NCBI GenBank assembly: GCA_001938485.1 | Contig: MQRK01254947.1 | Span: forward strand, 1 to 48,675 | Length of the DNA: 48,675 nucleotides | Reading direction: 5' to 3' | From: Girardia tigrina | Lineage: Eukaryota | Shown here: positions 1,511-48,675 of the stretch, one piece after another | How positions within the stretch are numbered: the stretch's first letter is position 1 | How the letters are laid out: the number at the start of each line of letters is the position of its first letter | Translations under genes and position numbers: made by a program | The notes under the pieces: generated by a model | What the model was told of the DNA's origin: nothing | The model's database searches: none | The model's input: only the letters and a program-made list of their open reading frames with translations

Positions 1511-2353
1511 CTCAAGATAGCGCTCAAGAGAACTTCAAAACCAATTTTTGAAGAATTTTCACAGTTGACTATTATCAATCATTCAAATCAGTTTTTTTGA
1601 CTAAATATTGTATACTATTGTACAAAAAAGTTGTAAGTTGAATTTTTATTTAGTGTACTCTTATGATTATAATTAAATCCCATCTTTAACCTTATTTTTA
1701 TTTAATTATAGTAAAAAAAATTTTTTAACTATAATAATTGGTGTAAATTTGAATGCAAGCAATTATTTACAACACAAACAGATTCTTCACAACAATTTTC
1801 AGTGGTCATCCTTCTTTGATTAATATAGTTTTTGATTAAATATTTAAATATGAAAAAATCAATGAATGGGGAAATTTTAATATTACATTTTAATTTCTCA
1901 TAATTTTTATTGGATAAAAAGACATTATGTAATTTTTAAATAAACATTAATTTTTAAAATATATTAAATTTAATAAGTTAAAATCGTTTACTTATTTATA
2001 TTATTAAAATTCATAATTATCAAACTTTAATTAATTAGTACTTTAATTTAATATCATTAAATTAATTTCATTAGATTCAAATAATGAATCAAATAACATA
2101 TCAATCCCATCTGAGTAGGAGAGTCACAAATCTAAACAGCATACAAACAACAAACTTACAACATTCACAATTATCCCTCACAATAAAGAACAAATAACCC
2201 ACGAAATCATCAGAGGCATCAAAATCAAAGATATGATATTGCAGAAATGCATGATGACAACGATTACAACGAATATGAAGAAACACGATCAAATGAAGGA
2301 AATTCGAGGTAAAGAATGCGTACAGATAATAGGCAAGTATACGAGAAAGACCA

Positions 2354-2394
2354 GGGAAACGAGGATACACAATCACAAGGAGAGGTGATCAGTG
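2354..2394 (+). promoter_or_regulatory. -1 ribosomal frameshift signal of element B
   Basis: GGGAAAC at 2354-2360 plus downstream hairpin homologous to 283-313. Confidence 0.65.
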
Positions 2395-4735
2395 TGCTTC
2401 ACTAAAAAGTAAAAATGTGTGTGTATGTGATTGTGTATGTAATGGTATGTTGGATTGTGTGTTGGAAGATACCCCTCTCGAAGTTTGTGAATTAGATAGT
2501 TGGAAAGAAGAATTTGAAACATACTGTTTTGATAAGGAGATAAAGACAAAATTGCAAAAGTTGAAACAGGAAGAAATTTTGGAAATATCAAAGCTCAATA
2601 TTAGATATGACAAATTGAATGGAAGATCAAGCATTGAATTTAATACAAAGTATATGAATGTTGAATGTCTTTTGGATACCGGTGCCAAAGTAAATGTTGT
2701 TAAAGCAGATATACTTAAAAGTATGAAAGATGTTCAGATAGAAAAAAACGAGTAAACGTATTCATTGTACAAATGATTCAGAACTTATAAATTATGGAAT
2801 TGTTAAATTAAAAGTAATAATTGAAGGAGTACAAAAAATTATAGAGTTTTATGTTGTCAAAGAACTCAACCCAGAAATGATAGCAGGTGTTGCCTTTTTG
2901 GACAAATTTGGAATAAAACTAAAGAAGGAAATTATAGATTCAAGTGACATATGGATGATTAGAGATAGTCCAACAGATGATGACAGACTAAAGAGAATTA
3001 AAGAAATATTTAACACCAAAGTTGACAACGAACTAATGAGACTATTAACAGAATATAAATCAATATTCATGGCTGACAAGTGGGATGTTGGGAAAACTTC
3101 CTTAACGAAACACAAAATAGAAACTCTTGGAGAATCAGTCTTAGTGAAGCCTTATCGATTACCACAACATTCTGAAGAGAAACTAAATGATGTCATTAGA
3201 AATTTTGAAGAAAACGGTATAATTGAAAAGTGTAGTTCTCCATGGAACTTCTCTCTGGTGTGTGTATGGAAAAAAGAGAAACAAGACATCCGAGTATGTG
3301 TCGATTTTTGACAGTTCAATAAAATTACTGTAAGACTGGCATTCCCCATGCCAAATGTGGATGACATGTTAAACACTTTGAATGGAGCAAAATATTTTAG
3401 TACAATCGATGTAGGAAATGCATATTATCAGGTTGAATTAGAAGAAGATTCAAAGATTAAAACTGCGTTTTCCACAAAGAATGGTCAATATTGTTTTAAA
3501 AGAATGCCTTTTGGAATTGCAGCGGCTCCAGCTACCTTTCAAGAATTAATGGTGAAAGTTCTAGGAGATTTGAATTGGAAAGAAGCAGTCGTATATTTTC
3601 GATGATATTTTGATTTTTGCAAAAGATAGAGAAGAACATCTTCAAAGAATACATAACGTTTTTGAAAAAATTAAAGAATCCGGCTTGAGAATAAATCCCG
3701 AGAAATGTCAATTCCTAGTAGAAAAAACGAAATTTTTAGGATATGTCATAAGTAAAGAAGGTATTGAGACAGATAAAACAACGATTGATGCAATTAGAAA
3801 ATTTCAAAACCCATCATGTATCAAACATTTAAGAAGCTTTTTGGGTTTGACGAATTACTGTAGGAAATTCATAAAGGATTACGCTAGATATGCAAAGGTT
3901 TTAGAAGGCTTATGTGGTAAGAGCAAGGATAAAAAACTTATTTGGATTGAAGAATGTGATGAAGCTTTTCAAAAATTAAAAGAAAGAATGATTAAGACAC
4001 CAATTTTGGCATACCCTGATTTTTCAAAAGACTTTATACTCGATACAGACGCAAGTTTTGATACAATAGAAGCGGTGCTATTACCGAAAGACATTTGTGG
4101 AAGAGAAAGAGTAATTGCATATAGTTCCCATAAAATGAATAAACGTGAACTTGGTTATTGAATTACAAGGAAAGAACTGCTTGCAATTTATTATTTCACT
4201 CAACATTTTAAACATTTTTTGTATGGGAAAAAAATTTTGTTACGAACGGATCATAAAGCTATCACTTTTATGATGACTACGAAAAACGCTATTACACCAC
4301 AGTTTCAAACATGGATAAATTTCCTTAGTGGTCTTGACATGAAAATAGAATATCGGAAAGGTGAGAAACATTCAAATGCTGATGCGATGTCTAAAAATTC
4401 TTGTGAAATGTGTAGCCAATGTCAGACGATATATGAAAAAGCCAAGAAAGGAAAGATCAAGACGAGAATTCTTGCATTGAACGAAGAGTCAGAGGGTTTC
4501 AAATGGCAAAAGAATAATAAAGAAATAAAACAAATTGTTGAAGATATCAGAAAAGGGAAAACGAGGAAATTGTTACGGTCGAAAAATGTTACAGTCATCC
4601 ACGAACACGCAAACATAACAAATAACAGACACCGAAGAAAACAAAGAAAAAATCAGCAATTTTCATACATATATTTGAAACCTTATAACACAATGACCCC
4701 TTATATTCGGTTCCCTCGAAGCTCGTAGATGAAAA

Positions 4736-5538
4736 CTAAAAAACAATCATAAACGAATAAAATAGACAAAGTCGATAAAAAATTACCCGATAATAGAAAG
4801 AAGACCGACCCCACATAACACGCAAAACGAGCAATCTGGGATGACAACCCGCCGAGGATTTTCATACCCCGAGAATAGTTATAGATTCTGAAAGAAAAAA
4901 GAATTAAAATAGACCAAAAACTTAATATAATCGCCTACCGAATTGTCCATGGGAGTTGAGAGGTCAACTGACCCCCTCCGGATAGCCCCTTGCAGGATGA
5001 ATACCTGGGCGGAACGTATGGGTTGACAACGAACACTTGCAAGCAGTTATTATCCTTAAAGAGCAAGAAATTAATTAAAAAACTAGTCAGAATTAACAAA
5101 GTCACTTACTGGACGACCCGATGAGGCTACGGGGTCAGCCGACCCTCCCGTAATAGGTTATCGCACGGGCAATCCGTGGAAGAAACCCGCGAAGCCACCG
5201 GACCACCCTGAGTAAAGTTATGGGCCCTGAAAGTTCAAACAATTAATTAGGATAAACAAAGCTTAATTAAAAACTTACCATGAGTCACCCGCAAAGTCCA
5301 AAATTAGAAGTCGGCTGACAAGTCCAATGACTCGGCCGCATACCGACTCTAAAAATTTGCAGAGTGTGTCACGACACACAGGCACGATTCCTATAATAAA
5401 AAAGAATTTTCAAAATTTAAAAATTTTTAAAAGGGACACACCTACCCGGATTGACCAATCAGGATCGCGGAAAAGCCCAGACACTTATCTGGCGGAGATC
5501 TATTGGCCCTCAGAGATTGAAAGGGTGTTTCATCAACC
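4736..5538 (-). ncRNA. Array of five short GT-AG introns and 93-117 nt GC-rich exons inside the giant LTR (spliced, apparently non-coding)
   Basis: Minus-strand introns 5391-5445, 5227-5278, 5055-5109, 4888-4938 and 4736-4786 (55, 52, 55, 51, 51 nt). Donors GTAGGT, GTAAGT, GTAAGT, GTAGGC, GTAATT; each has a U-rich tract ending in AG. Exon 5110-5226 has stops in all three frames. Confidence 0.7.
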
Positions 5539-5773
5539 CTATAAAAAGGAGAACCACTTCGTCATTATCGCACAGCTATAATTACACAATTATAATCACA
5601 CAAAAAAAATTACACAAATATAATTACATAATTATCGCAAAGATCACCACGTGGTTGAAATCCATTGAGGAGACGACGAAACCGTTTTGAGGCCGCGAAT
5701 TCCACAATCACAAAAAAAACTACAACGAATCAATCGGGACCGGAGCGTCTAACAATCAACCGACGAGACGAAT

Positions 5774-5868
5774 AACTGATTCAGAACTAAACGAACGCCA
5801 GGGGAACCCCATTACGCGTCGATACACAAAGTCCGATTACATTCTTCCGTGACTGATTTTTCTATTGG
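5774..5868 (-). promoter_or_regulatory. Candidate LTR core promoter: Inr TCAGTT plus upstream CCAAT
   Basis: TCAGTT on the minus strand at 5779-5774, CCAAT at 5868-5864, directly upstream of the exon/intron array. Confidence 0.4.
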
Positions 5869-6058
5869 GCTCAGTTGTTATCATCAATGTAAATTTAACT
5901 TTTATATTTATTTGTTATCTATTATGAACTTCAATAATTTATGTATTTATGAGTTTTGTTTATTTGACATTTGATTTAATTATACTATATATAAGTAGTT
6001 TACTTTTCATAGAAAGAACTAAATAGCGCCGTCGTCGCCGCCGTCCGTCGTTCCAGTT

Positions 6059-6244
6059 ATGAATGCTCGCATTACGAACCCGTTTATCGAGCGCTTAGAG
6101 AATATTCTGGGACCCCTTCCGGATTTCGAGGTAGATGAGAACAACAATGCAGTCCGGGTCGCATTGCCACTAATTGTTAGCGACGTACGGTCGATAACCC
6201 TGGGCGAGATGCTCGAGTCGAATGGGCTGCACCATTTAGTATAA
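6059..6244 (+). CDS. 61-aa orphan ORF in the giant LTR, antisense to the LTR
   Basis: ATG-initiated, GC-richer than flanks. TATATATAAG at 5986-5995 and AATAAA at 6274-6279. No recognisable domain. Confidence 0.45.
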   Translation: MNARITNPFIERLENILGPLPDFEVDENNNAVRVALPLIVSDVRSITLGEMLESNGLHHLV

Positions 6245-7842
6245 CGGCGCGGAAGTCGCTCAGCAAATTGATAAATAAAGTTTTATAAACTGCAGTTTAA
6301 TTTTTTTTATTCGATTTAGAACTTACTCCCATTTGGTGACTTTAGGAATTTTATTTTTATAAGTTTTGTTATTAAGTCTTTAATATTAATAGTTGAGTAT
6401 CGGTTTTATTGATGAACGTTCAAGAGTATTTAATAAACATGAAAGTCGAGTTATTACATGGATATGTAAGGGTGTTTATTCGATAATAGGCGAGAGTATA
6501 AATTTTGCTAACGGGTGCTCAGAGATAATTTAGCGTAATTAAGGAGCTCGAATGAATTTATATTTAGTTTTGTATTACTAACAGTTTCTATCTTAATTAT
6601 TTTAATATGAAAGATTATAAATACCTTGATTCTGAACCCCGCAGCAACTCGTCAAACGTCTTACACATAATCGGTTCAACGGCGAGCATCATTCGAAATA
6701 TTGCTCAAGGTCGTTGATTAAAGTGCGATATTAAAACAAACGCGGAGGCAACCAGTTTTGAGAAATGCGACTTTATTGATATAAATAAGTTAATTTTAAC
6801 GATTTCCTATCGGTGCAGGTCAAATAACAACGATATTCTATATTATATATATTTAGTTTTATGATTATTTCAGATGGTTAAAATTGATTTTTAGGATTAA
6901 CTTTCGAATTAAACGATAAATTTACGATTTTGAATTAAAAGATAATTTTATTTACTCTAGTTTTGGTTCTGATAATTTTAATAATTTTATAGTTTTACAA
7001 CCGATTCTAATTTAGGTAGAACTAATGTTTATTCTAATACGTAAATCGTACAAAGTAATGACTCGAATCCTTAACGAATTATGAATATTAAATTAGTAAA
7101 TTTTCGCTAGTAAATTAAGTTGGTGTTACTATTAGTAATTTGAGTCGAAATTGTTTCATATTTTATTCTGCTAACATTATAACAAAATGTAACTGAGTGG
7201 ATTTGCGATTATCGACAAAGAATTTTGTTAAGGAATTTTTCTAAAGAATTTAAAAATCAAAATGCGTTTGCGAATGTTGAGTTATTTTGAATGAAATAGT
7301 GCGAAATTATATTTTGTTAATAAGGGATTCTATTAATAATTTAAATTATTTTGAGCGGAATCGTTACACTTTTGTTAATTAGGAATTGCTAAATAATTGA
7401 TGGATCAAATCGATATCAGAGTTTTATAGCAATTTAAATGACGAATCCCTCAATGTTAATTATGCAGCAGATTAATATCACGATGATATTTTGCGATACA
7501 GTATAACGTAAAACATATAAACGATTGCCAGGGGATTTGCTGCTAATATAAGGACTATGTAGTTACACTGCCGAAGATGAATTGACATTACAGGATAATT
7601 TTGGATAATTGAAAGTTCTAGGAGTATAAGCTATCCTTCTGCGAGTGCCGCAAGTTTCACGTTACAAACTCAACATAACATAACTTAACACTGCCCTAAG
7701 TCTTGAAAATTTATACCACAATGCCACAGTTCGACAAAACCGTACACAACATTGCCACAAGTATAACACGACACATAACACAACAGTGCAACAAGTTTGA
7801 CAATACATAAAGATGACGATTCTGAACACATTACGAAAATCA

Positions 7843-8088
7843 TCCCCGAGCGACGCTCCGCTAGGCGGGGGGCCCATAGCCCATCCCGTCTTGAACCGAA
7901 CCCGAAGGTCCTCCAGACTCTTCACTGTTAGACAGATGTTGAGCGAGGAGAGACGTCCGACCCAGGTGAAATAAATAAATAAGAATTAGGTTAAACATTA
8001 AAATTTGAGATCGGGTTGTGGTGGACCCTTAACCAACCACTGGGGGCTCAGAGCACTTAAAAGTGTTGTGAACAGAGGGGTCGTGACA
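7843..8088 (-). ncRNA. Conserved structured RNA element at the LTR (inferred U3) terminus
   Basis: Compensatory changes versus 47041-47290: GTGGT/ACCAC to GTGAC/GTCAC; GTC-T-CTCC/GGAG-GAC to GCC-T-CTTC/GAAG-GGC; CTGT/ACAG to CTGC/GCAG. Includes a cUUCGg side loop. Confidence 0.65.
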
Positions 8089-9092
8089 AAATGGACACTA
8101 AAAAATGACATCGTGGCAACTCAGGACAATAAATACTGGATCCCAAAAGAAAAACGAACAGATTTCATTGAATAGATGCACATGCTGTTATACCATGCTG
8201 GTAGTAAAAAAGTCTATAACTATCGTCGAGAAGATTTTGACATGGAAAATATGAGGAATTTCATTAAAGAAGTAGTCCAAAGTTGTTTAAATTGTCAAAA
8301 AAGAAAGACATAAACTTCGAAAACGAAAGAAAAACATATAAAATTGTCGGCAGATGAACCTTTCCAGAAAATATACATGGATTTCTGTGGACCATTCAAA
8401 AGAAACATAAACGGATATCAATACGTACTTGCAATAGTAGACCAATTCAGTAGATATATTAGCCTGAATGCAGTTGCTAGTCAAGATGAAAAAAACAGTT
8501 CGTAGAGTGATATTGGACAGATGGATATGGAAATTTGGACATCCAAAGTAAATCCATGTTGATATAAGAAAAACATTTGAATAGGCTTTGTTCAAAGATA
8601 CAGTTAAAAAATTCAAAGTCGATAGTATCTATTCAAGTCCATATCATCATAATACAAATGGGATAGTGGAAAGACAATTTCGAACAATCAGGGATGCTAT
8701 AAATATTAGAATGAAGGACGGAAACTACAGAGATTGGACAGAAGTTTTGTCGGAAATAGAATTTATGTTGAATAGTACAATTCAAGCTATGACAGGTGTT
8801 TCACCGGCTGAAATAATATTTGGGAGACAATTAAGACATTGATGGAAAAACAATAAAGAAACTAACGGAAACCAAGTTAATGTCGAACAAAATATGGAGC
8901 CAAGAAGAGTTTTTGAAATTGGAGACAGAGTGTTGATAAAAAAAGAAAATATATCAAAAGAAGATGACCGTTACATGGGTCCGGCAATTGTGTTGAAACG
9001 AAATCACGAAAGGAGTTACGAGTTACAGCTCGAAGATGGTAGAACTTTGATTAGAAATGTTGAATGGCTAAAGCCATTTAAACCGACGGGGA

Positions 9093-9550
9093 TGTGAGGA
9101 ATGTTTTGAATTGTGTATTGATACTGTGCATGTATAATGTTGATTCGGATTGTGCCTCTCCTACACAGATGGATGATTGATATTTTCTTTGATTCTTAAC
9201 TAATTAAAAATAATTTAATTTAATTGTAAAGTAAAAAGATTTAAAATGATTTTTGAATGTATTATTTATTTTTTAATGTAATTTAAAATTTTAATATATG
9301 TTAATATATTTTAATAATATGTTCTTTTTTTAAAAAAATGTTTAGATTTAATTTCAACCAATTAGATTCTTTATAATTAATAATTTTTATTAACAGATTT
9401 TCATTTATTGAAAATAATTAGTTTGAACTCAGAAATATATTGATCAAGAGAGATGTCAAATAGTGAATGCGCTTGTGATATTAATAAATGTTGTAAAACT
9501 CATATTGATGTTGTTAATAATCATAAAATATAATTGTCAGGAACACCGCA
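9093..9550 (+). mobile_element. 3' LTR of gypsy element B (~460 bp)
   Basis: Purine tract GACGGGGA then TGTGAGG at 9093. AATAAA near 9483. Ends CCGCA at 9550; the end is inferred because no 5' LTR is available to compare. Confidence 0.6.
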
Positions 9551-9670: not shown

Positions 9671-11632
9671 TTATTTCGCCGGTAATCCATGTAATGTTAA
9701 GTTATATTTGGAAATGATTTCTTGTGGAATTAGTTTCTCAAAATTTTGAAAGAAGGTACGATAGACAGAAATGATTGTCGCCTCCGAGACTCCGATAATA
9801 TCACTGATTTCTGTTTGAAGAAAGTTTAAAGATTTTACAACAATCAAATAATAACTTACGTTTCTTGGAAACATTTTCCTTCAGTAAGAGACTGGCCATG
9901 TAAATTGATGCACCGATGATCGAATGAGAAGTTTTACTAATCAACTTTTCTACTGATTTCGCAAGTACTCTGGCCAAAATTTCAACTTGTTTGTTTTTTA
10001 TTGACAATTGATAGCAAAATCGGCCCATTTGTTCAAACACATTCAGTGGTTTGGTTCCTAATTTCAATGCATTGATTATCTTCTTTGTCATTTTCCCAAT
10101 ATGCCTCAATGAACAATTCGACACAGTACAAATCTCTGAATGGTTTAAGTTAAATCTCCAGGTTTCATATCAGAAATCAAAAACTATTAATTATCAAACT
10201 CAAATATTTTATATTTGGTTTTATTAAAATTATTTCAGGTTGCTAACAATAAAGAACAAAATCCTAATGAACAGAAAATTGTTTGTAGAAAGGTCATATA
10301 ATATCCTTCAAAATATTTAAAAGGATATCGATTTTATATTACTATTTATATTTATTAGGTCTTTTATAATTAAAATAAGTAGTTATACTAGGGTAACCAT
10401 ACGTCCGCAGTTTCCCGAACACATCCGGGTTTGTATGTTCATTTCATAAAATTTTCATCTAATTTTTAATTATTATCCGATAAATTTCATGTTAACTGTA
10501 AAAATATGTCAAATTAAACGGTATTATTGAAAGAAGCCGTAAATTTACGACGAGAATCACGTATTAGTATTAATATTTGAACATTGTCGTTTAATTAAAC
10601 ATTTGAAATTCAAATTCTGTATAATGATAATTTAGAAAAACGTCTTTCAGCTTAATCTTTTGTCATCCCCAAAATATACAACTTTTTAATGTATAAAGTA
10701 GGATACAAATTATTACATACAACTCTATTTTTAATGTTTTTCTTTTATAAATATTTTATTAAAATGAATATCTTTCTGATATTTTTATAAGAAATATTTT
10801 TTATAATAATATTTTTTTAAGGTTGGGAGTATATTGAGTTAAACGATATGTCTCTTGGTATAGAATGACGATAATGTATTTTCGGTTCCAGTGATTTAAA
10901 ATGTGTTATTACCAAATATTTTTTACTATTTAGAAGTACAATCGGTCAAATTTAAAAAGAAAGTTATTAACGAATCATCTTTACAATTTAAGTATACCTT
11001 TCAAGGTCCGAGTAACATCATAATTCCTGCAAGCGATGTATATACAAGCACAAGCGATTTGTTCCTTGTTTAGTCTTGTAAATCCTCCCATTTCAGTTAG
11101 TTTCTTTACTATTGACAATGCGTCTTTCTAAAAATTTATTATTAATAATTAAGTTATAGACCTATACAAACCTGTGTGCTTAAATCAATTTTTAAACGGA
11201 CCCCGAGTGTTAGAATGTGAGTTCTGTATTGTTTAATCATTCTTTCAGCAGAAGATTCTGAAGTTCGACTTTTATATTTCGGATTTCCATTTTCGTCGAA
11301 ATATCTCGAATCATAATAATGTTGAATTGTTATAGATGTTGTCGGATCTAAATCGTTGCTATCTTCAACAGCTGCGACCCTAGAATTGTCGACCCCATCA
11401 TCATTTGCAAAAGACCGCCATTCAGCATCAAAATAGATGACTCTAAATAATATTAAGTCAACTACACCTTAACAAACTTTTTACCGTTCTGCAACAATTA
11501 AACCACACTTAGGACATATTAAATTCCCAGCTTTATAATCTTCAATTAAAGTAGCACCAGGATGATATTTGCAATGGACTCTACTAAAGAGTTTTTTAAT
11601 AATTAAAATATTATACCAACACTCTTTTCCAT
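9671..11632 (-). CDS. GTF2B: Transcription initiation factor IIB-like protein (divergent), 6 exons, ~308 aa
   Basis: Exons 11632-11617 (tentative), 11578-11485, 11442-11172, 11127-10998, 10135-9860, 9810-9671 join in frame through GT-AG introns (38, 42, 44, 862, 49 nt). Zn ribbon CKYH...CPKC, B-reader [20 protein letters not shown], cyclin repeats [17 protein letters not shown] and [21 protein letters not shown]. Exon 1 needs a weak GAG acceptor, so the start is uncertain. Confidence 0.9.
10389..10430 (+). mobile_element. hAT-type terminal remnant within TFIIB intron 4
   Basis: TAGGGTAACCATACGTCC resembles hAT TIRs. No partner TIR found. Confidence 0.4.
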
Positions 11633-17721: not shown

Positions 17722-20045
17722 AACACTATATTCGCCCCCTTCCGACAGGCTGCACCTCCCAAACACCACGAGCTGGATTATCCGATTTGACCCGCTCATA
17801 TAACTGCTTTACGATCTCGGACACGTGTGGTTCCACTGGGTCGTTCTTAGTCAGTATCGCTGGCAAGCCGTTTAACAACACTGCATGCTGGTCGCAACCA
17901 TCCGCACACCGGATAGTGGTCCTTTAATCTTCCAGTCCACGCGAAAAGGATACACCGTGTAAGGCGCTCCGGTAGTTCCGGGATACTCCTGTCCTAACCC
18001 AACTGCAACTGTCCTTCCGCTCCCATTTTATTGCCAACCCCAAGACGCGACCACAGTCAATGGCTACTGGGGGCTTTGCTTAGAGCCCATATTTCTTCTG
18101 TACAGACAAGAGATGCTATACCCAGACGTTCACGGTGTTTACCACGATGTCATCATGGTATGCATCAGCGTTGGCTTGCACCAATGGGTCATATCTCAAT
18201 ACATGCATAAGGACTTTCTGCATGATTTTTGGTGCAATACTTAACCCGAACCCGAGTTGAGTTAAGTACCACGATCGGCCCTCATGATGTACCACTTGAT
18301 ATACCTACAATGATTGATCCACCTTGATCTGCAGGTAGGGACACCGTAAGTCGACTTTTGCAATTTTGTGTCCCATTGCGGCGCGAATTCCATAGTTTCT
18401 CTGTGCACACTAGACTCCCTATGGTGTGACTGGAGATTGAATCATTCAAGTTCCGGTAGTCGTGAACCGGCCGGACCTTCTCCTTCACTTTAGCATGACC
18501 GTCATTAAGGGCAATGACGGTCGTCGTTGACTCTCGCATTCCACTATCCACCCATTTGATTTCCACTCTTTTAACTCCATATTTACTTCGACTTGATGCT
18601 CTTTGGCCGATGAATATTCTGCCACGCTGTTCTGCACTGGAGGTTCTCGCCCTTTCTTCCAGTGCCAGCGCACCGTCCAGAATTGACGGTCGAAATATGC
18701 GCTAAAATCGGTGTCCGAAATCTGAATTGTTGCCCTCTGCCTTGTGGCATCTCATACTTTGAGTCAACCGTCACCACTCCGACGGGTGACGACTGTACTG
18801 CACACAGTCGGATTCTTCCTGTCGATCTCTTCCAAGCCTGGCTTCTGATTGGGGCCAGTTGATCCACCCGGACCGAATGTTGGTTCCGCTCCGCTTTTCC
18901 CGACGTGGGTACCTCCAAACATGGAAATCATGTCCATTCCCAGCAACATATCCGTGCCTATTCCACTCAGGTTTCGGGCGAGCAGAACCCAACACCGCAT
19001 CTGGCGTCCGGACACGCTGACGTCCAGCCAGGCACCGAATTTAATCACCGTCGGACCGAGCACTGTTTGAAGCTTCTCGGATTCTCGTTCCGCGTGATTC
19101 TCGGGAACCAACCTCTGGTCGATCATAGACACCGAGCACCCAGTATCCACCAGTGCTCTCACAGCTCGCTCCTCGACTCGGACTTCGACTGTGAGCAGAT
19201 CCACGACATAACTCGCAGACACCCCACCCGCGCAACGGTGAGGGCCTGCTAGTCTTTTCCTAGACGTTGCTGGCGGTGTGGGCATTCAGCACAAAGGTGG
19301 TGTGCTGAATCACAAATGAAGCAATGCCTCTGCTTACCCTTGATAGTGGATTTATCCCATTCTTCGTCCTCCTTTCGGCTCCGCTGCCCGTGGCCACAAC
19401 GGTTGTAGTTCGAGTGATGCGCTCGATTTCCGGCATTTTTGTATTTTGTCGCTGCCGCTGTCACGTTTGCCGGTTCACTGTTCCCCGGTCCTTTATCATC
19501 GGCAGCCAACGATGGCGCCATTGTCGTCGTGTCACTTATCCACCGCTTGCTGATGCGGAGCAGCGCGCGTGCCATCGATATTATTTCATCAAGCGGAAAT
19601 TCTTTCCTTATCGCTTCTGCCGATAAGGTTAACCGCACATAAAGGCCTGTCTCAGAAAAAAATTCCTGCGGTTATTGCCCGTGACTAACCGTTGTCGCGA
19701 GCCGTCGCAGATAAGATGCGAATTCTTCAACTGCTTCGCCTGGTCGAAGATATCTCGAATGGAATTTTGCAGACACATCCCTCGGGTCAGGACCATAGGC
19801 GCTCAGCAGCGCTTCTTTTACCGCCTAGTAGCACCCCTGCTTTCCGCTAGGTAACCCGGAAAACAATTCAAACGCTCGACCCTCGAGCAGTATTGGCAGA
19901 GCAACCGCCTTTTCAATGTCGCAAAAGGCTGCCGTCACCTCAAATTTGCGACACCATTCTGCGAAATTTCCGGATCCATCGAATAACCGGACTTCATCTG
20001 TGAATCTTATTTTGTTCATCAGCCACGATAGCTTGACGAAGACCT
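17722..20045 (-). mobile_element. GC-rich Ty3/gypsy internal fragment C (gag, CCHC knuckle, protease, RT, connection), no LTRs
   Basis: Gag FDGSGNFAEW..LLEGRAF; CFICDSAHHLCAEC; ALVDTGCS; RPVHDYRNLN; LGFGLSIAPKIM; YHDD; HYPVCGWLRPACS. Truncated at the start of RNase H. Confidence 0.9.
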
Positions 20046-26535: not shown

Positions 26536-28492
26536 CAGTCAACTCTATCTATTTTCACAAATTTAGGACCGGATAAATTGGAAAAAAGTAAAATTATAAA
26601 AATTGCTATGTAATTTCACATATATAATTTAATGGAAAAACAGCACTGATAAATATTATAATATATTATTAATTCACCAAATAACAAAAATTTACCATAA
26701 AAAATCCAATATAATCATAACAAGAAAATTCTTAAATCATACAGTCATAAAAAAATCATAAATCAAAATAATCGACAAGTGTCTTTTGCTTTGAATTTTT
26801 CTTCTAATTTGATTAAAATCAATTTTCAATATTTTTAATATTCTAATTTCATTATTACTTTTTTTGTTCTTGTTCCTCTAAAAATTTTATCAATGTGTTA
26901 CATGCATTTGTTGCTTCTTTATAAGTTGTGGGAATTATATGGCTCTGTGAAGATGAAGATTCATTTGTTTCCAAAAATTCATCATCTAAATTGTTTGTTA
27001 ATTCATCATTATTTAACTCAACATTTAGTTTATACTCTTCTCTATCTATAACTTCTTCAATAGAAATAAATTCTTCAACTGTCATTGGATCACTAATATT
27101 AATCTTCTTAATCAAGTATTCTAATTCTTTTTCGTCCTTTCGAGCAATGCTTGTCTTGTCCAATGAACTCAATGCAGACTTGATAAGTTTCGTATGCTTC
27201 CAACAATTTTGAATTGTTTCAGTGGATACATCATCCCACGCACTAACAACATATTTAATTGCTTGTAATAAATTAATTTTATTATTAATAATGCCATTAT
27301 TATCTGCAAAAGAATCAAGTAAATAATTTAAAAATCTTTTTCGATATTTTCTTTTGAATGATGCAATGATTCCGGCATTGAGTGGTTGTAACCTCGCGGT
27401 TGTATTGGGTGGTAAAAAATGAACATTTATAGATTTTAAGTTCATATATTAATTATTAATTTTGTCATCCACGCGTTGGTATTTGATTTGTAAATGTAAA
27501 AGAAACATCGTGGGTTTTGAGACGTTCCTATGATGAGTGGCTCACATTTCCCTGTTCCCGTTACATTTGTACATAAAGCTATAGTTATGCACTCTTTATC
27601 TTTTTTTCTTACCAGCTATCCTCTGGGATGCTAATGTTTTGTCAGGCTCTAATCGGTAGTAAACTGCTGTTTCATCAAAATTAAACATCATTAGGATTGT
27701 ATTGGCTTATTAAATTTTGGAAAATAAGTAAGGATTCGTTAACAAGATCTCCATCTACATTTCATACCTCTCAATGAATGTGTTGTTTTTTAATCCCATG
27801 TCTTTGTTTGAAGTCTGAGAGCCATCTATCTGAAAAATTAATTCTTTCATTGTACAGAATGCGTAATTTATCACATATTCTTTTTCCTTGATTATAAATT
27901 ATTTCATCAGTTAATATCAATCTCACTTCATTTATATAAAACTATTCAATCAAATCTTTTTCTAATTGTGGATGCCTGACATTACCAGTTCTAAATGAAT
28001 TTGGATTCACTATCTGGCTTATTTCGATATCAAATTGAGGAGAATTAATGATTTTAGTGACAGTCGATCGATCAATGGTTTTCTTAAATTCTTTCTTAAT
28101 CCAGTGTAACAACGAATAACAAATCTATAAAGTTTATTTTTCAATAACAAATACAATTAAATAGATATTATTTAAACAAATAATTATCTATATTTTTTCA
28201 TGTTAAATATTTCATTTAATAAATAAATTTAACATGTAACATCCAGGAAACCAATTGTTCATGTGTTAGTTTATTGTTCGCTTTGTAATGTTCATAGAGC
28301 TTTGCTTTTTCCCGCTTTGGTGAGTGAAACATTGCACTTTTTAATATGGACCATGTTTTGATGGGTTCGGATTTGTTAAATTTATTTAAAAATTTTGAAA
28401 ATAAGCAATTAAATTAAATTGATTGAAATATTTAAACAAAGTGTGAAATTGTCCAATTGTGAAATTATTGAGCGTGAAAATAGAGTTGACTG
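26536..28492 (-). mobile_element. pogo/Tigger-like DNA transposon (CENP-B HTH plus DDE), internally deleted
   Basis: TIR CAGTCAACTCTAT / ATAGAGTTGACTG with TA TSD. FNFDETA (~27680), FLPPNTTARLQPLNAGIIASFK (ORF 26855-27445), HPQLEKDL HTH (~27970). Confidence 0.92.
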
Positions 28493-40740: not shown

Positions 40741-43700
40741 TTAAATTAGAGGAATAAAAGATTGGCTGTGGCACTGCTTTAAGTACCAATTGCCATTGTT
40801 CGACTTCAGTCTCGAACGTAATCTAATCGAGTCGTGTTGTTTTCAACTGACGACTTACAAAAAAAATTTATTTCTTTATCAATTGTACAAGTTTACTTGC
40901 GATAAAAGTCTAGACAATTGTGCATACGGCAGCAGTACGATACGCGCAGACGAGACATTTACGTTTTTCGTTTTTGAAATAACATTTATATTTTATTTTA
41001 TATTTTAAATTGCTTTTTAAAAAATATTTTCTGATTTTTCAAATTAATTTCAATTTTAAATTAATTTTATTAATATTATTATTTTAATAAAATTCATTTT
41101 TAATTTTTAATATGACATTTCTGTTAATTTTTTCAACTTTAAAATATTCTTAGTTGCAATACTAATACTAATTATTGTTACTATAATTACCATAGCAATA
41201 ATAATGATTATTGATAAACTTCCTGACAGGATGAAGTTATTTTTTAATAAAACAATAATATTATTAATAAAAAATTTTTTTTATAAAAACAACCACGTTT
41301 TTCAAGCATTACCAATGCACTAAAAGGAGGAAAATAATTTTTTTCTAGACATGTGAGAAATTTTATACCTAANNNNNNNNNNNNNNNNNNNNNNNNNNNN
41401 NNNNNNNNNNNNNNNNNNNNNNNNNNNNNNNNNNNNNNNNNNNNNNNNNNNNNNNNNNNNNNNNNNNNNNNNNNNNNNNNNNNNNNNNNNNNNNNNNNNN
41501 NNNNNNNNNNNNNNNNNNNNNNNNTCTGAATTACTGCTATTAGTAACTGCTATTTCCTCTTTACTGCTTTTTAGTAACAATCGATCATTTCTATACCCCA
41601 CGTTTTTGGTTAGGTATAAAATTTCTCACATGTCTAGAAAAAATTATTTTCCTACTTTTAGTGCATTGGTAATGCTTGAAAAACGTGGTTGTTTTTATAA
41701 AAAAATTTTTTTATTAATAATTTTGTTTTGGTGACAGATCTGAATCAAATAATTTCACGAAAGATCTCTTTCCACACAATTTTTCTAACCGTGAAATACC
41801 TAAAGACGAATTAGGTTTAAGTCTCAGGGAGAAAAGAGCTTCTGGAAGGATGTCTAACCAGTTTGAGTCATTTCCTTTAAGTCGTATTGTTTGTTTGAGA
41901 TATCTGTTAAAGATCTCGACTTTACCATTGGAGTTTGGGTTATATGGAGTGGTTCTGATTTTAACAATACCAAAAGATGTGCAAAACTTTTTGAATAGAT
42001 CAGATTCAAACTGTCGCCCTTGATCTGATATTAATTTTTTTGAGGGCCATATCTACAAATCCAGTTCTCCTTGATTGCTTTGATTATTGTTACTGAGGAA
42101 ATATCTGGCACTGGAATGGCTTCCAAACCATGATGAAAAACGATCAATTATAGTGACTATGTATTTTATTTCGCGATTTGGTGGAAGCGGACCGATTATA
42201 TCTACGTGAATAATATCGAATATGCCCCCTTCCTTAAATTGTATTTTCCTGATTGTTATTCTACTTCTAGATTTCTTTAAACGATAACGATATTCATAAT
42301 GACCAAAATTGTGTATTGAAGCGATACAAGTTTGTCTCAGGTTTTTAGGAATCAAAGGACGAAAATGTCAGACAACGAAACGTCATACCAAATTCCTTTA
42401 CTTTCTTTCAATTTGATTGATGGATAGTTGGCACATTCTTTTACCACTTCTAATTGTTTACCAAGACGGTCACTAGTGGTAAGATTAGGGTAAAAATTTA
42501 TACAACCTACGGGATTACGAGACATAAAATCTGCGGCTACATTGGAATTCCCAGACACGTATTTGAAACAACAATGGAATTGCGAGATATAACAAGTTTG
42601 AGTCAATTGTCGAGGCGTAAGATCTTTTAAAGATAGTAACTGAAGAAGAGGTTTGTGACCTGTGACAATTGTGAACTTACGGTCCTCTAAGAAATGTCGA
42701 AAATGTTTGATAGACTTGTAGATGGCTAAAAGTTCCCTATCAAAAGTTGAATATCTTCGTTCTGTTTCTTTTAATTTTGAAGAGTAAAAAGCAATAGGAT
42801 AGACTACATCGTTTAATCTTTGTTCAAAAACACTACCGATGACATAGGAGGACGCGTCGGTGGTTAAATATAATTCCGATCCTTTTTGTAAGCAAGTTAA
42901 CTTGGTAATGTTTTTTAAAGCTTTTTTACCTCTAAGAAAGCTACCTCTAGAACTTCGTTCCAAGTAATTTTGTCAAGTTTCTTTTTTTCTTTTATTGTTT
43001 TAGTAAAAGGAGACAATAGCAGTGAACAGTCTTTTATAAATTGGTGGTAGAATTGATCATACCATAAATTCGGCGGATCTCTCTTACGTTATTAGATGGT
43101 TTAAGATCTAGGATGTATTGGATCTTCCCATTAATTGAACTGAGACTGTTTTCACTGATAGTGTGACCAAAAAAATCCACACTTTGCAAAAAGTAAGAAC
43201 ATTTTTTTAAATTTATTTTTAGGTTTTGTTTATCTAAAACTTCTAAAACTTCAATTAGATGATTTTCATGCTCTTTTATATATCTAGAACCCACCAAAAT
43301 GTCGTCTAAATAAACTACAACATGTTTTGAATTTCGAAAAATTTGGTCCATGGCTCGTTAGAATGAAGCGGTCGCATTCTTCAAACCAAAAGACATACGA
43401 ATAAACTCGAAGAGACCAAAAGGAGTAGTAACCGCCGTTTTACAAACGTCTTCTTCGGCCATAGGAATTTGATAATACGCTTGAATCAAATCGATTTTAC
43501 TGAAGATTTTTGCGCCTGGCAGTCGAGTAGTGACATCTTTTATTAAAGGAAGAGGGTACTCATCTTTCAAAGTTATCGCATTAAGTTTACGATAGTCTCC
43601 ACAGCAATGCCAATCACCATTCGGTTTTTTTGCATGAGTAATGCTGAAGACCAGTGGGAAGACGAACTTCTTGTAATTTTACGGGCTTCCAAGTCTAGAA

Positions 43701-44434
43701 AGATTTCTTTGGCGGCTTCAAGTTTGTCTGGTGGAAGCACCGAACTCGAGAATGGACCGGTAAGCCTTTCGTAATAATATTGTGAGCAACACAGTTAGAA
43801 CCATCTACGTCAGAAAATAGGTTGAATAACTTTGGGAAGAGTGTTAAGAGTCGTTGAACAAATACTTTGTTAGTGGTTATTTTGTCTAGATCGATGTTTA
43901 ATTCAGTAGTCACACCAGTAGAATATTCAGAAGTACCGCTAGTTAGTACGTCATTCGTATAAAGCAAATTGACAGAATGATTAACCGTGTCGGCAGTTAT
44001 AGTGGAAGAAGGAAGATCTACCAGAGTTTTTAGAGTGAATTTTTTTTTAAATTTTCCCGAATTAAAGAAAATATAGTTTCGAGTGGGGGTTTTTTATTTC
44101 TAATCTGGAGACAAGAATTGTTAGTGATGCAGTTTTTTTGGAATGATCGAATGTGATGAATCATGATTAATCCGGATGGATTTATTTCGACAATCAACTA
44201 AAAAATTATAATAGGCTAAAAAATCTGCGCCACTACGAAATACCACTGGATTAAATTATCCCCAATATTCAATGTTAATGGAATGCGACCGTAAGAACGA
44301 ATAACAGAACCATTAGCTGCAGTTAAATTATTTTTGGGTTTGTTTAAAAAAATTTGGAGTTAACGAAATTTAATGGAACTACAGACAATGAGAACCAGAG
44401 TCAATAAGAAAACTTGAATTAATATTACTCGGAT

Positions 44435-47040: not shown

Positions 47041-48500
47041 TGTCACGACCCATTCGTTCGTAGCAGTTTTGAACGCTCAGAGCCCCCAGTGACTATTAAG
47101 GGTCAGTCACAACCCAGTCTTAGTTTATTACTCAACTATGACTATATATATTACTTATACTTTATAGGGTCGGACGCCTCTTCTCGCTCGACATCTGCCT
47201 GGCAGTGCCGAGTCTGAAGGGCCTGTGGGTTCGGATAAAGATGGGATGTGCTATGGGCCCCCCACCTAGCGGAGTGTCGCTCGGGGATGATATTTTCCTA
47301 ACTATAAGTCGATGCCTTATCATTTATTGTTATGTTTATTGTGTATTATGAATCTTATGGCAATGTTATGTTTGCGTGTGGACTTAGTGCATCTGTTTGT
47401 CGTGTCTAATTAACTTACAGCTGTTATGTATATCCGTAAACTCGCTGTAGTGGTGTATATTTTCTTGCGGATGCATTACACATGTTTGTCCGATCTGTAA
47501 TGTTTATGTGAGTGGTTTTCACTTGCAGCATTGTGATGGGTCATCCAACTTGTGGCACTGTATATGTCATGGCGTAACTGGAGAAGACATCATGTTATAA
47601 CACATCATCATTGTGTCGTATCAGAACTATCTTTAGTTATTATTATTTATCATCGTATCATTCAAGAGTCGACAGTCAACAGCAGCTCTAAATAAACCGG
47701 TTCTATTTTCATTCTATCGATGCGAATTTACGAGATTTATATCGGTCAGCTTTACAGAGCTCGAATCAATTCGTTACGGGTTCATAAATCGCTTAATCCG
47801 TAAATTCCTATAGCTCGATTTCACTATACACTTTCCTAGTCAAATTACTCGCGAAAATTAGTTTTTATAAAATTCATATCTTCTATTTTATTTTATCGGT
47901 TTCCTTTAAAGACAATCACGCAAGACAAAACACTCAAGGTAGATTTGTTACCGATACTCATTTAACTCAATCCTTAAAAACTGTTCATCAAGTTGAATCG
48001 ACTAATTACATAAATTCGTATCTCGTTCGGTTGTGAAATCTATCTAAAATATATTTTCTGTCGAGATAAATCAAATTCACTTTATATTAAATCATAACCC
48101 GTTAGAAAATTAAAATATCGAATTGTAATTCCTTAAAATTTGATCAGATTAAAATATTCCTCATTAATACAAATACTTATATATAAATTTGATCAAAATA
48201 AATTAATTAGATATATACATTTTTCCATTTATCTAATAATTTAAAGCGAATAACTAAAATACGATTATGAATTTTTATCGATGCAATTTAATTATAAAAT
48301 TCAATATCAACTCTCTAAAATTCGGTTACTAAGGCTGTTTGTTTAAAATATTCAAATTATATCCTAACCTTGGAGCACATTTTCGGTTCTCAAGAAAATT
48401 TTAATCAAAAGGTTTTTTAACTCATTTTAAGAAAATAACCGCATAGATGGAGCAGGTAATTCTTTTCATTTTTATAATCCTCACTTTCTGATTTCAATTT
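47041..48500 (+). mobile_element. Diverged partial copy of the giant LTR family
   Basis: Starts TGTCACGACCC. 47041-47291 aligns to the reverse complement of 7841-8088 and has the same ACTTRYRGCA-like motif array. Right boundary not defined. Confidence 0.75.
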
Positions 48501-48675
48501 TCGTTCTTTGCAGTTCGTACAAAGTAGTATGAAAATGGGCATTCTGTCGACCACCCCCATGGCGCCCTAAGGCCAAAAAATCTCCCCTCACACACACCCC
48601 ACTAAAATTTATTTTAAATCGAACGCCAAGCAGGTTTTGTACTTTTAATTATTGATTGATGGTGACTTTATATAT

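Follow-up and report, generated by a model that had tools for sequence, protein, structure and literature searches.

The window analysed here is a 48,675-nucleotide contig of Girardia tigrina that contains a solo LTR of a Burro-like giant Gypsy element, and this LTR carries five short introns that lie antisense to the element. The five antisense introns are real and probably spliced, with junctions for introns A to D in contigs that are probably RNA. With a probability of about one half, the array would be a self-contained antisense non-coding unit in which splicing, and not sequence, regulates the sense promoter of the LTR in cis.

Limits and strand of the LTR

The LTR and the features that define its limits are the following.

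4571..8088, + strand: solo LTR of a Burro-like giant Gypsy element, 3518 bp, with TG..CA ends and the target-site duplication (TSD) AAAT
4567..4570, + strand: left TSD AAAT, with its right copy at 8089-8092
3574..4570, + strand: RT/RNase H portion of a decayed Gypsy pol that is unrelated and that the LTR interrupts; the integrase part resumes past 8092
7837..8088, + strand: 3' block kept across LTR subfamilies, likely the U5 end

The empty site is seen as a joint that skips the whole LTR in contigs of runs X1, X2, and X4. A search of the species' own genome returned at least 44 matches (40 scored of 1424 candidates). Both LTR ends were present in 15 of 20 fetched stretches, with lengths of 3.0-3.75 kb, and 13 of these 15 have a 4-bp TSD; the majority of the two-ended copies examined are solo LTRs. 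Ginger-type DNA transposons feature TG..CA ends, a 4-bp TSD, and introns. Such a transposon would also have terminal inverted repeats and its own transposase and would lack a primer site (PBS). Assignment to that type was rejected, as only a few terminal bases of the LTR are inverted and other copies are flanked by a PBS and gag-pol.

The LTR runs on the + strand, because a PBS follows the 8088-type end, a purine tract precedes the 4571-type start, and gag-pol lies on the same strand. A shared PBS and internal sequence were found beyond the 8088-type end in 10 of 30 fetched loci, which are a subset of 242 matches from several subfamilies. Both ends were searched for a following TGG, and the opposite, 4571-type end showed no PBS or internal continuation in 18 loci, duplicates apart. 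The PBS is complementary to host tRNA-Pro(TGG) genes. In other copies the 4571-type start is preceded by a common internal 3' end, which includes a short purine tract, and the pol ORFs there have the same orientation; the genome holds 103 such junctions. The window's own subfamily occurs in both positions: before the PBS at locus L199, which is 92% identical to the window copy over the intron array and then reaches the PBS, and after the purine tract at loci L132, L167, L170, and L172. The five introns are therefore antisense, 165-875 nt from the LTR 5' end, and they lie in U3, because they are upstream whether genomic RNA starts near the TATA box or nearer the 3' block. The initial annotation had placed the array in the R/U5 of a minus-strand LTR; its position inside an LTR, now 4571-8088, stands, and the strand and the R/U5 assignment had to be given up. 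The paradox that reverse transcription of spliced RNA should remove the introns is dissolved, since genomic RNA cannot splice antisense introns, and the proposal that splicing sorts mRNA from packaged genome fails because the introns are antisense to genomic RNA.

Hairpins occur in the highly conserved 7837-8088 block, and the primer-site start (TGGGGGCTC) is present there a second time, about 45 nt inside the LTR end; an Rfam scan of the block gave no match at E ≤ 1. AATAAA near the LTR 3' end is not conserved among copies, so the R/U5 limits are not fixed by that signal. At L177 (G000:C219236) and L185 (G000:C214077) a single LTR has a purine tract before it and a PBS after it, like tandem elements sharing an LTR. 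Elsewhere in the window, the 3' portion of a diverged same-family LTR lies at 47041-48675 (- strand), cut by the contig end, and two related decayed Gypsy pol copies lie in tandem at 1-1500 and 2200-9100 (+ strand). Further Gypsy fragments and a DDE_1 transposase fragment are found at 18280-19670, 42050-44100, and 26855-27448, all on the - strand.

The parent element

In one contig, which includes short N gaps, the parent's internal region measures ~23.7 kb between the PBS and the 3' LTR. Pfam domains in the parent comprise gag, CCHC, ubiquitin-like, mononegavirus-type fusion protein, protease, dUTPase, RT, RNase H, and integrase. The order PR-RT-RH-IN is that expected of Ty3/Gypsy, and a fusion-glycoprotein env (PF24664, E down to 4e-86) is located between gag and pol, upstream of the protease. 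The dUTPase between PR and RT and the ubiquitin-like domain after gag are weak matches below curated cut-offs (E of 9e-4 and 2e-4), found at the expected places in two copies each. The parent is, from its domain content, a Burro-like giant Gypsy that matches the published Burro anatomy (PMC6431247). The available portion of that account describes a planarian element that is alike in its ~24 kb internal region, gag, CCHC and ubiquitin-like domains, fusion env between gag and pol, and dUTPase between PR and RT. For the BIR, BCL2, MATH, and ankyrin cargo of Burro, the scanned subset of ORF pieces of at least 150 aa gave no Pfam match. No named Burro protein was among the 120 matches listed. The same portion of PMC6431247 mentions neither introns nor an ORF in the LTR.

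Loci L167, L168, and L172 feature a large additional sense ORF (750-1000 aa pieces) between integrase and the 3' LTR, without a clear Pfam family. Very different LTR 5' subfamilies adjoin a nearly identical internal 3' end and the LTRs appear mosaic, which suggests frequent U3 swapping.

The antisense introns and their junctions

The array consists of five minus-strand GT..AG blocks of 51-55 nt with a GC content of 0.20-0.25, and the intron-flanking segments are 93, 112, 117, 116, and 101 nt long with a GC content of 0.46-0.61. The five blocks and the segment lengths given in the initial annotation were confirmed.

5391..5445, - strand: antisense intron A, 55 nt; CT..AC joint in three X1 contigs and one X6 contig
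5227..5278, - strand: antisense intron B, 52 nt; joined at 5227-5281 in X1 with one intervening letter, and a 20-nt loose end matches the next exon
5110..5226, - strand: exon 3, 117 nt (~120 nt in relatives), length-conserved and, by its stops, non-coding
5055..5109, - strand: antisense intron C, 55 nt; CT..AC joint in X5 and a 15-nt loose end in X1
4888..4938, - strand: antisense intron D, 51 nt; one X1 contig has a joint of 51 nt
4736..4786, - strand: predicted antisense intron E, 51 nt; all 28 close copies keep its GT and AG

Four of the five introns are thus skipped in contigs, as spliced alignment had been expected to reveal; the joints are all from unstranded contigs of a single sample (runs X1, X5, and X6), which is taken to be RNA by a guess. 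The contigs with skipped introns A to D are probably RNA. The X6 contig with the intron A joint has 67 nt on its short side, and the joint of intron D reads CT..AC in copies carrying the common base at 4887. Exon 4 and intron D together repeat exon 3 and intron C as a tandem duplicate (score 98 versus 50 ± 9 in 300 shuffles). No joint for intron E was found in any contig aligned; a counterpart of this intron (a homologous intron) occurs in three diverged groups. The first contig alignment gave 14 joints, of which the non-intron ones are the empty site or are not GT..AG. No intron junction was seen in the contigs of X2, X3, and X4, and the X2 contigs retain the introns; X2 and X4 are leaf-litter runs recorded as RNA. 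Runs X7 to X9 contained almost none of the sequence words sought and were left out of the alignment. In X1 the contig depth falls at the introns, an observation set aside because depth does not rank the parts.

Intronless genomic copies, which had also been proposed as a check, were searched for with exact patterns at junctions C and A, and none was found in the fragmentary assembly. Intron-bearing genomic matches at junction C number 70, and this disparity counts against a DNA origin of the joints. The donor of intron C is lost in 7 of these 70 copies, with an alternative GT 4 nt inside (read by eye). A sixth candidate intron at 5627-5576 was rejected as a variable short repeat of 3-52 nt across copies.

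The blocks had been likened in size to the introns of a host TFIIB gene. The short introns of that divergent gene, located at 9671-11632 of the window (- strand), are indeed 42, 44, and 49 nt long, and the gene has a fourth intron of 862 nt. Homology searches found no close relative of this gene.

Conservation of the splice architecture

Among 27 close copies (one partial copy dropped), 5 of 540 splice-dinucleotide positions deviate from the majority base of their column, versus 5.4% in intron interiors and 3.9% in exons, so that the splice-site conservation foreseen in the initial annotation was found. A diverged set was formed from 46 LTR 5' ends in 28 groups. A fixed intron rule, set after seeing the window, identified 62 minus-strand candidates in the 28 groups, some of which share a donor, versus a mean of 18.4 and a maximum of 30 in 100 local shuffles of 20-nt tiles. 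On the plus strand of the same groups the rule identified 2 candidates, versus 2 in the shuffles. Four of the 28 diverged groups have no intron candidate, and because of this and the loss of the intron C donor described above, each intron is dispensable.

Nineteen non-redundant diverged LTRs were chosen by an exonic motif that is present in 28 of the 46. The acceptor AG of intron B falls within 1 nt in all 19, the donor of intron C lies at 0 or -4 in 18, and intron C is 48-56 nt long in all 19, at a mean exon identity of 0.58. Donor A is located 87-95 nt from the TATA box in six groups, and the number of introns per LTR varies from about 2 to 5 across the family. Splice sites, intron size, and an exon length of ~120 nt are kept while exon sequence drifts, the pattern of an apparently selected unit. 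Part of the exon conservation may act at the DNA level, since the exons hold promoter motifs.

Promoter, transcript ends, and the sense small ORF

Four further features of the LTR bear on transcription.

5540..5549, + strand: predicted TATA box of the sense promoter; CCAAT boxes lie at 5455 and 5502, and TGAGTCA, which is AP-1-like, at 5281
4666..4675, - strand: predicted poly(A) signal of the antisense unit, AATATA within AATA[T/A/C]ATGTA, with a T/GT-rich tract after it
5774..5779, - strand: Inr-like TCAGTT
6059..6244, + strand: sense small ORF inside the LTR, 61 aa

The sequences at 5540-5549, 5455, 5502, and 5281 are what we take to be TATA, CCAAT, and AP-1-like motifs. They are kept in 25-27 of the 27 close copies, and a TATA box with two CCAAT-type boxes is present in 15 of the 28 diverged groups. 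The Inr-like TCAGTT, which had been put forward as the start at 5779, is not conserved (TCAGT in 4 of the 25 covering copies) and was abandoned. The spliced X6 contig is unbroken to 5711, past the TATA box; being an unstranded contig, it is not proof of one molecule.

The poly(A)-like motif is present in 27 of 27 close copies, and in 18 of the 28 groups it is found on the minus strand, 76-142 nt inward of the LTR start, versus 0.06 in shuffles, for a motif that was picked post hoc. AAUAAA, AAUAUA, and AAUACA are among the poly(A) signals reported for a planarian, and the available part of the survey reports no UGUA element (PMC5068929), which leaves the TGTA part of the motif unexplained. An extra AATAAA is found 46 nt into the internal region in five of five elements checked. 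AATAAA/ATTAAA is not depleted within the array (16 versus 11.6), a result that gives no support for protection from early cleavage.

The small ORF faces the antisense unit head to head. All 38 segments examined have it open, with some loci counted twice, and its dN/dS is 0.36-0.38 over 51 distinct peptides in pairs that are not independent; as far as sequence tells, it is under purifying selection. It has no Pfam match, and one full-length relative (P0121) was found among 1.84 billion representatives. Across groups the ORF is 56-64 aa long with a core of P-x-I-I-[ID]-[DE]-V-[RT]-S-I, which we presume to resemble a SUMO-interacting motif. A candidate sense 5' UTR intron is located at 5889-6027 (+ strand), between the TATA box and the small ORF, with a donor-like TGTAA(A/T)(G/T)T in most full LTRs. 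No junction was seen for a sense intron near 5889-6013, and one X3 contig crosses the 3' part unspliced.

Relation to known systems

The initial annotation knew of no precedent for this architecture, and a close one exists in the non-LTR elements TART and HeT-A. The antisense RNAs of these Drosophila telomeric elements are, in the available portions of the sources (PMC1636488, PMC2615633), non-coding with several short introns in terminal repeats or UTR, like the array here, and the TART antisense introns are mostly 53-104 nt. Intron size and spacing are also similar across diverged subfamilies, and in the same portions the function of the TART/HeT-A antisense RNAs is left unresolved. The array here differs in that it is found in the LTR of an env-bearing Gypsy whose solo LTRs are dispersed genome-wide, in its higher density (one intron per ~165 nt), and in a start and end predicted inside the LTR, unlike the kilobase runs of TART/HeT-A. 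By analogy, the array would work like the TART/HeT-A antisense RNAs without being a member of that class.

LTR-driven antisense RNA, as predicted here, has been described for BLV AS1/AS2, HTLV-1 hbz, and HIV-1 Ast. In the sections available, these RNAs are spliced in BLV and HTLV, partly non-coding, and proposed as regulators of the sense promoter (PMC4855707, PMC10186651). In these sections the retroviral antisense RNAs leave the 3' LTR and extend through internal sequence, with BLV joints that span ~1.1 and 5.5 kb, unlike the several 50-nt introns found here wholly within U3. The plant and fly LTR elements Grande, RIRE2, Retand, and micropia feature antisense transcription that is conserved within the family, as here; their antisense ORFs and RNAs lie in the internal region, and the available text mentions no intron array (PMC7264820). 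Among the papers that a literature search listed, a set without the original Burro paper, none describes an array of antisense introns within an LTR of this class of retrotransposon.

Proposed mechanism and alternatives

In the cis reading, RNA polymerase II would start at or downstream (+) of the sense TATA box at 5540, and antisense transcription would run backwards over the TATA, CCAAT, and AP-1-like sites. Two to five introns of ~50 nt would be spliced from this transcript, which is predicted to end at the poly(A) signal ~100 nt inside the LTR 5' end. The introns would be copied intact at every retrotransposition, because they face away from genomic RNA. Action in cis is proposed because processing signals and position are conserved, sequence drifts, and the predicted reach is short. 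A spliced non-coding RNA from the LTR had been the third option of the initial annotation, and the antisense unit fits it. Multi-exonic enhancer lincRNAs offer a precedent for spliced non-coding RNA that acts in cis; in the available portion of PMC7035876 their splicing is conserved without sequence-dependent function and is linked to stronger cis activity. They differ in that they belong to mammalian host enhancers and not a mobile element, and that evidence is correlative. We lean slightly towards the prediction that the spliced antisense transcript keeps the promoter open rather than shut.

A wider and tentative proposal is that the LTR is a two-gene control cassette, in which the multi-intron antisense RNA and the 61-aa sense protein would face each other across one TATA/CCAAT promoter. 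It would work as an on/off switch comparable to the latency circuits that complex retroviruses have; splicing itself would be the selected trait, and every solo LTR in the genome would carry the cassette.

The spliced antisense RNA could instead act in trans as a self-restraint, being exported and feeding piRNA or dsRNA silencing of genomic RNA, a reading that we regard as unlikely. Trans silencing has been proposed for the TART/HeT-A antisense RNAs, which share the architecture, in the parts of PMC1636488 and PMC2615633 available, and PMC8532177, in the part available, describes the transposon piRNAs of a planarian as mostly antisense and Burro elements as PIWI targets. The free drift of the exons fits such silencing, as exon sequence would need to match its own copy only. 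The predicted ends argue against it, in that they hold the RNA to ~1 kb of U3, away from gag-pol.

It is quite unlikely that the array is a promoter at the DNA level, built of GC-rich factor-binding or nucleosome modules with AT-rich linkers, and that leaky divergent transcription yields the splice sites as a by-product without a function. The exons do contain CCAAT, AP-1-like, and palindromic motifs, the donor-to-donor spacing of 131-196 nt (mostly 141-177 nt) is near a nucleosome repeat, exon 2 is 90, 100, or 112 nt long in steps near one helical turn, and single donors can disappear. A DNA-level array leaves unexplained, however, the strand-specific enrichment over composition-matched shuffles, the donor that reappears 4 nt away where the usual one is absent, the intron lengths near the host minimum, and the conserved poly(A)-like motif. 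A conserved RNA fold of exon 3 was considered and rejected as weak, with 5 of 100 column shuffles reaching its score. Exon 3 holds a small GGGTC-N4-G(A/G)CCC hairpin or palindrome, and the constant part of the fold is this 5-bp hairpin alone, with one-sided changes only; single-sequence fold z-scores lie between -1.6 and +1.1.

That the spliced RNA encodes a short, fast-evolving protein is improbable. Exon 3 gives a hint of protein with indels of only +6 and -12 among the 19 diverged LTRs, and a spliced ATG ORF of 92-103 aa is present in 11 of the 28 close copies. The longest ORFs of other groups are in different frames, however, and ORFs of this length are reached in 3-5% of shuffles (a 96-aa ORF in 5%). 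In all 28 close copies every one of the three frames of the spliced array contains 4-16 stops, which bears out the earlier statement that no continuous ORF results. In exon 3 each of the six frames has stops in 9-18 of 18 diverged sequences (one with Ns dropped), and the same 18 gave no codon-phase signal (p = 0.76). The dN/dS of the antisense exon is 0.64-0.99, and the same method gives 0.36-0.38 for the sense ORF; within the close subfamily the antisense value is 0.29-1.74, which is uninformative, and the frame with uniformly low values carries 10-16 stops. Exon ends also slide by 1 and 4 nt among diverged LTRs. From stops everywhere and the lack of a shared frame, the antisense transcript is classed as non-coding.

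A set of sense introns in R/U5, serving to separate mRNA from the packaged genome, would account for introns that exist and are spliced, but this has next to no probability, as the PBS, purine tract, and gag-pol all lie on the opposite strand and the 18 tested ends gave no sign of a second family using the LTR in reverse.

Significance

Why antisense RNAs of retroelements should have introns has been described as enigmatic since the papers on TART and HeT-A. This family gives dozens of diverged natural versions of such a unit, in which splice sites and lengths are kept and sequence drifts. The unit is short enough for a reporter and has many natural versions, and the intron question is therefore directly testable. 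The spliced-antisense pattern would thereby extend to LTR elements. Burro-like LTRs are not bare promoters, and every solo LTR would bring the host genome both a spliced non-coding gene and a gene for a small protein.
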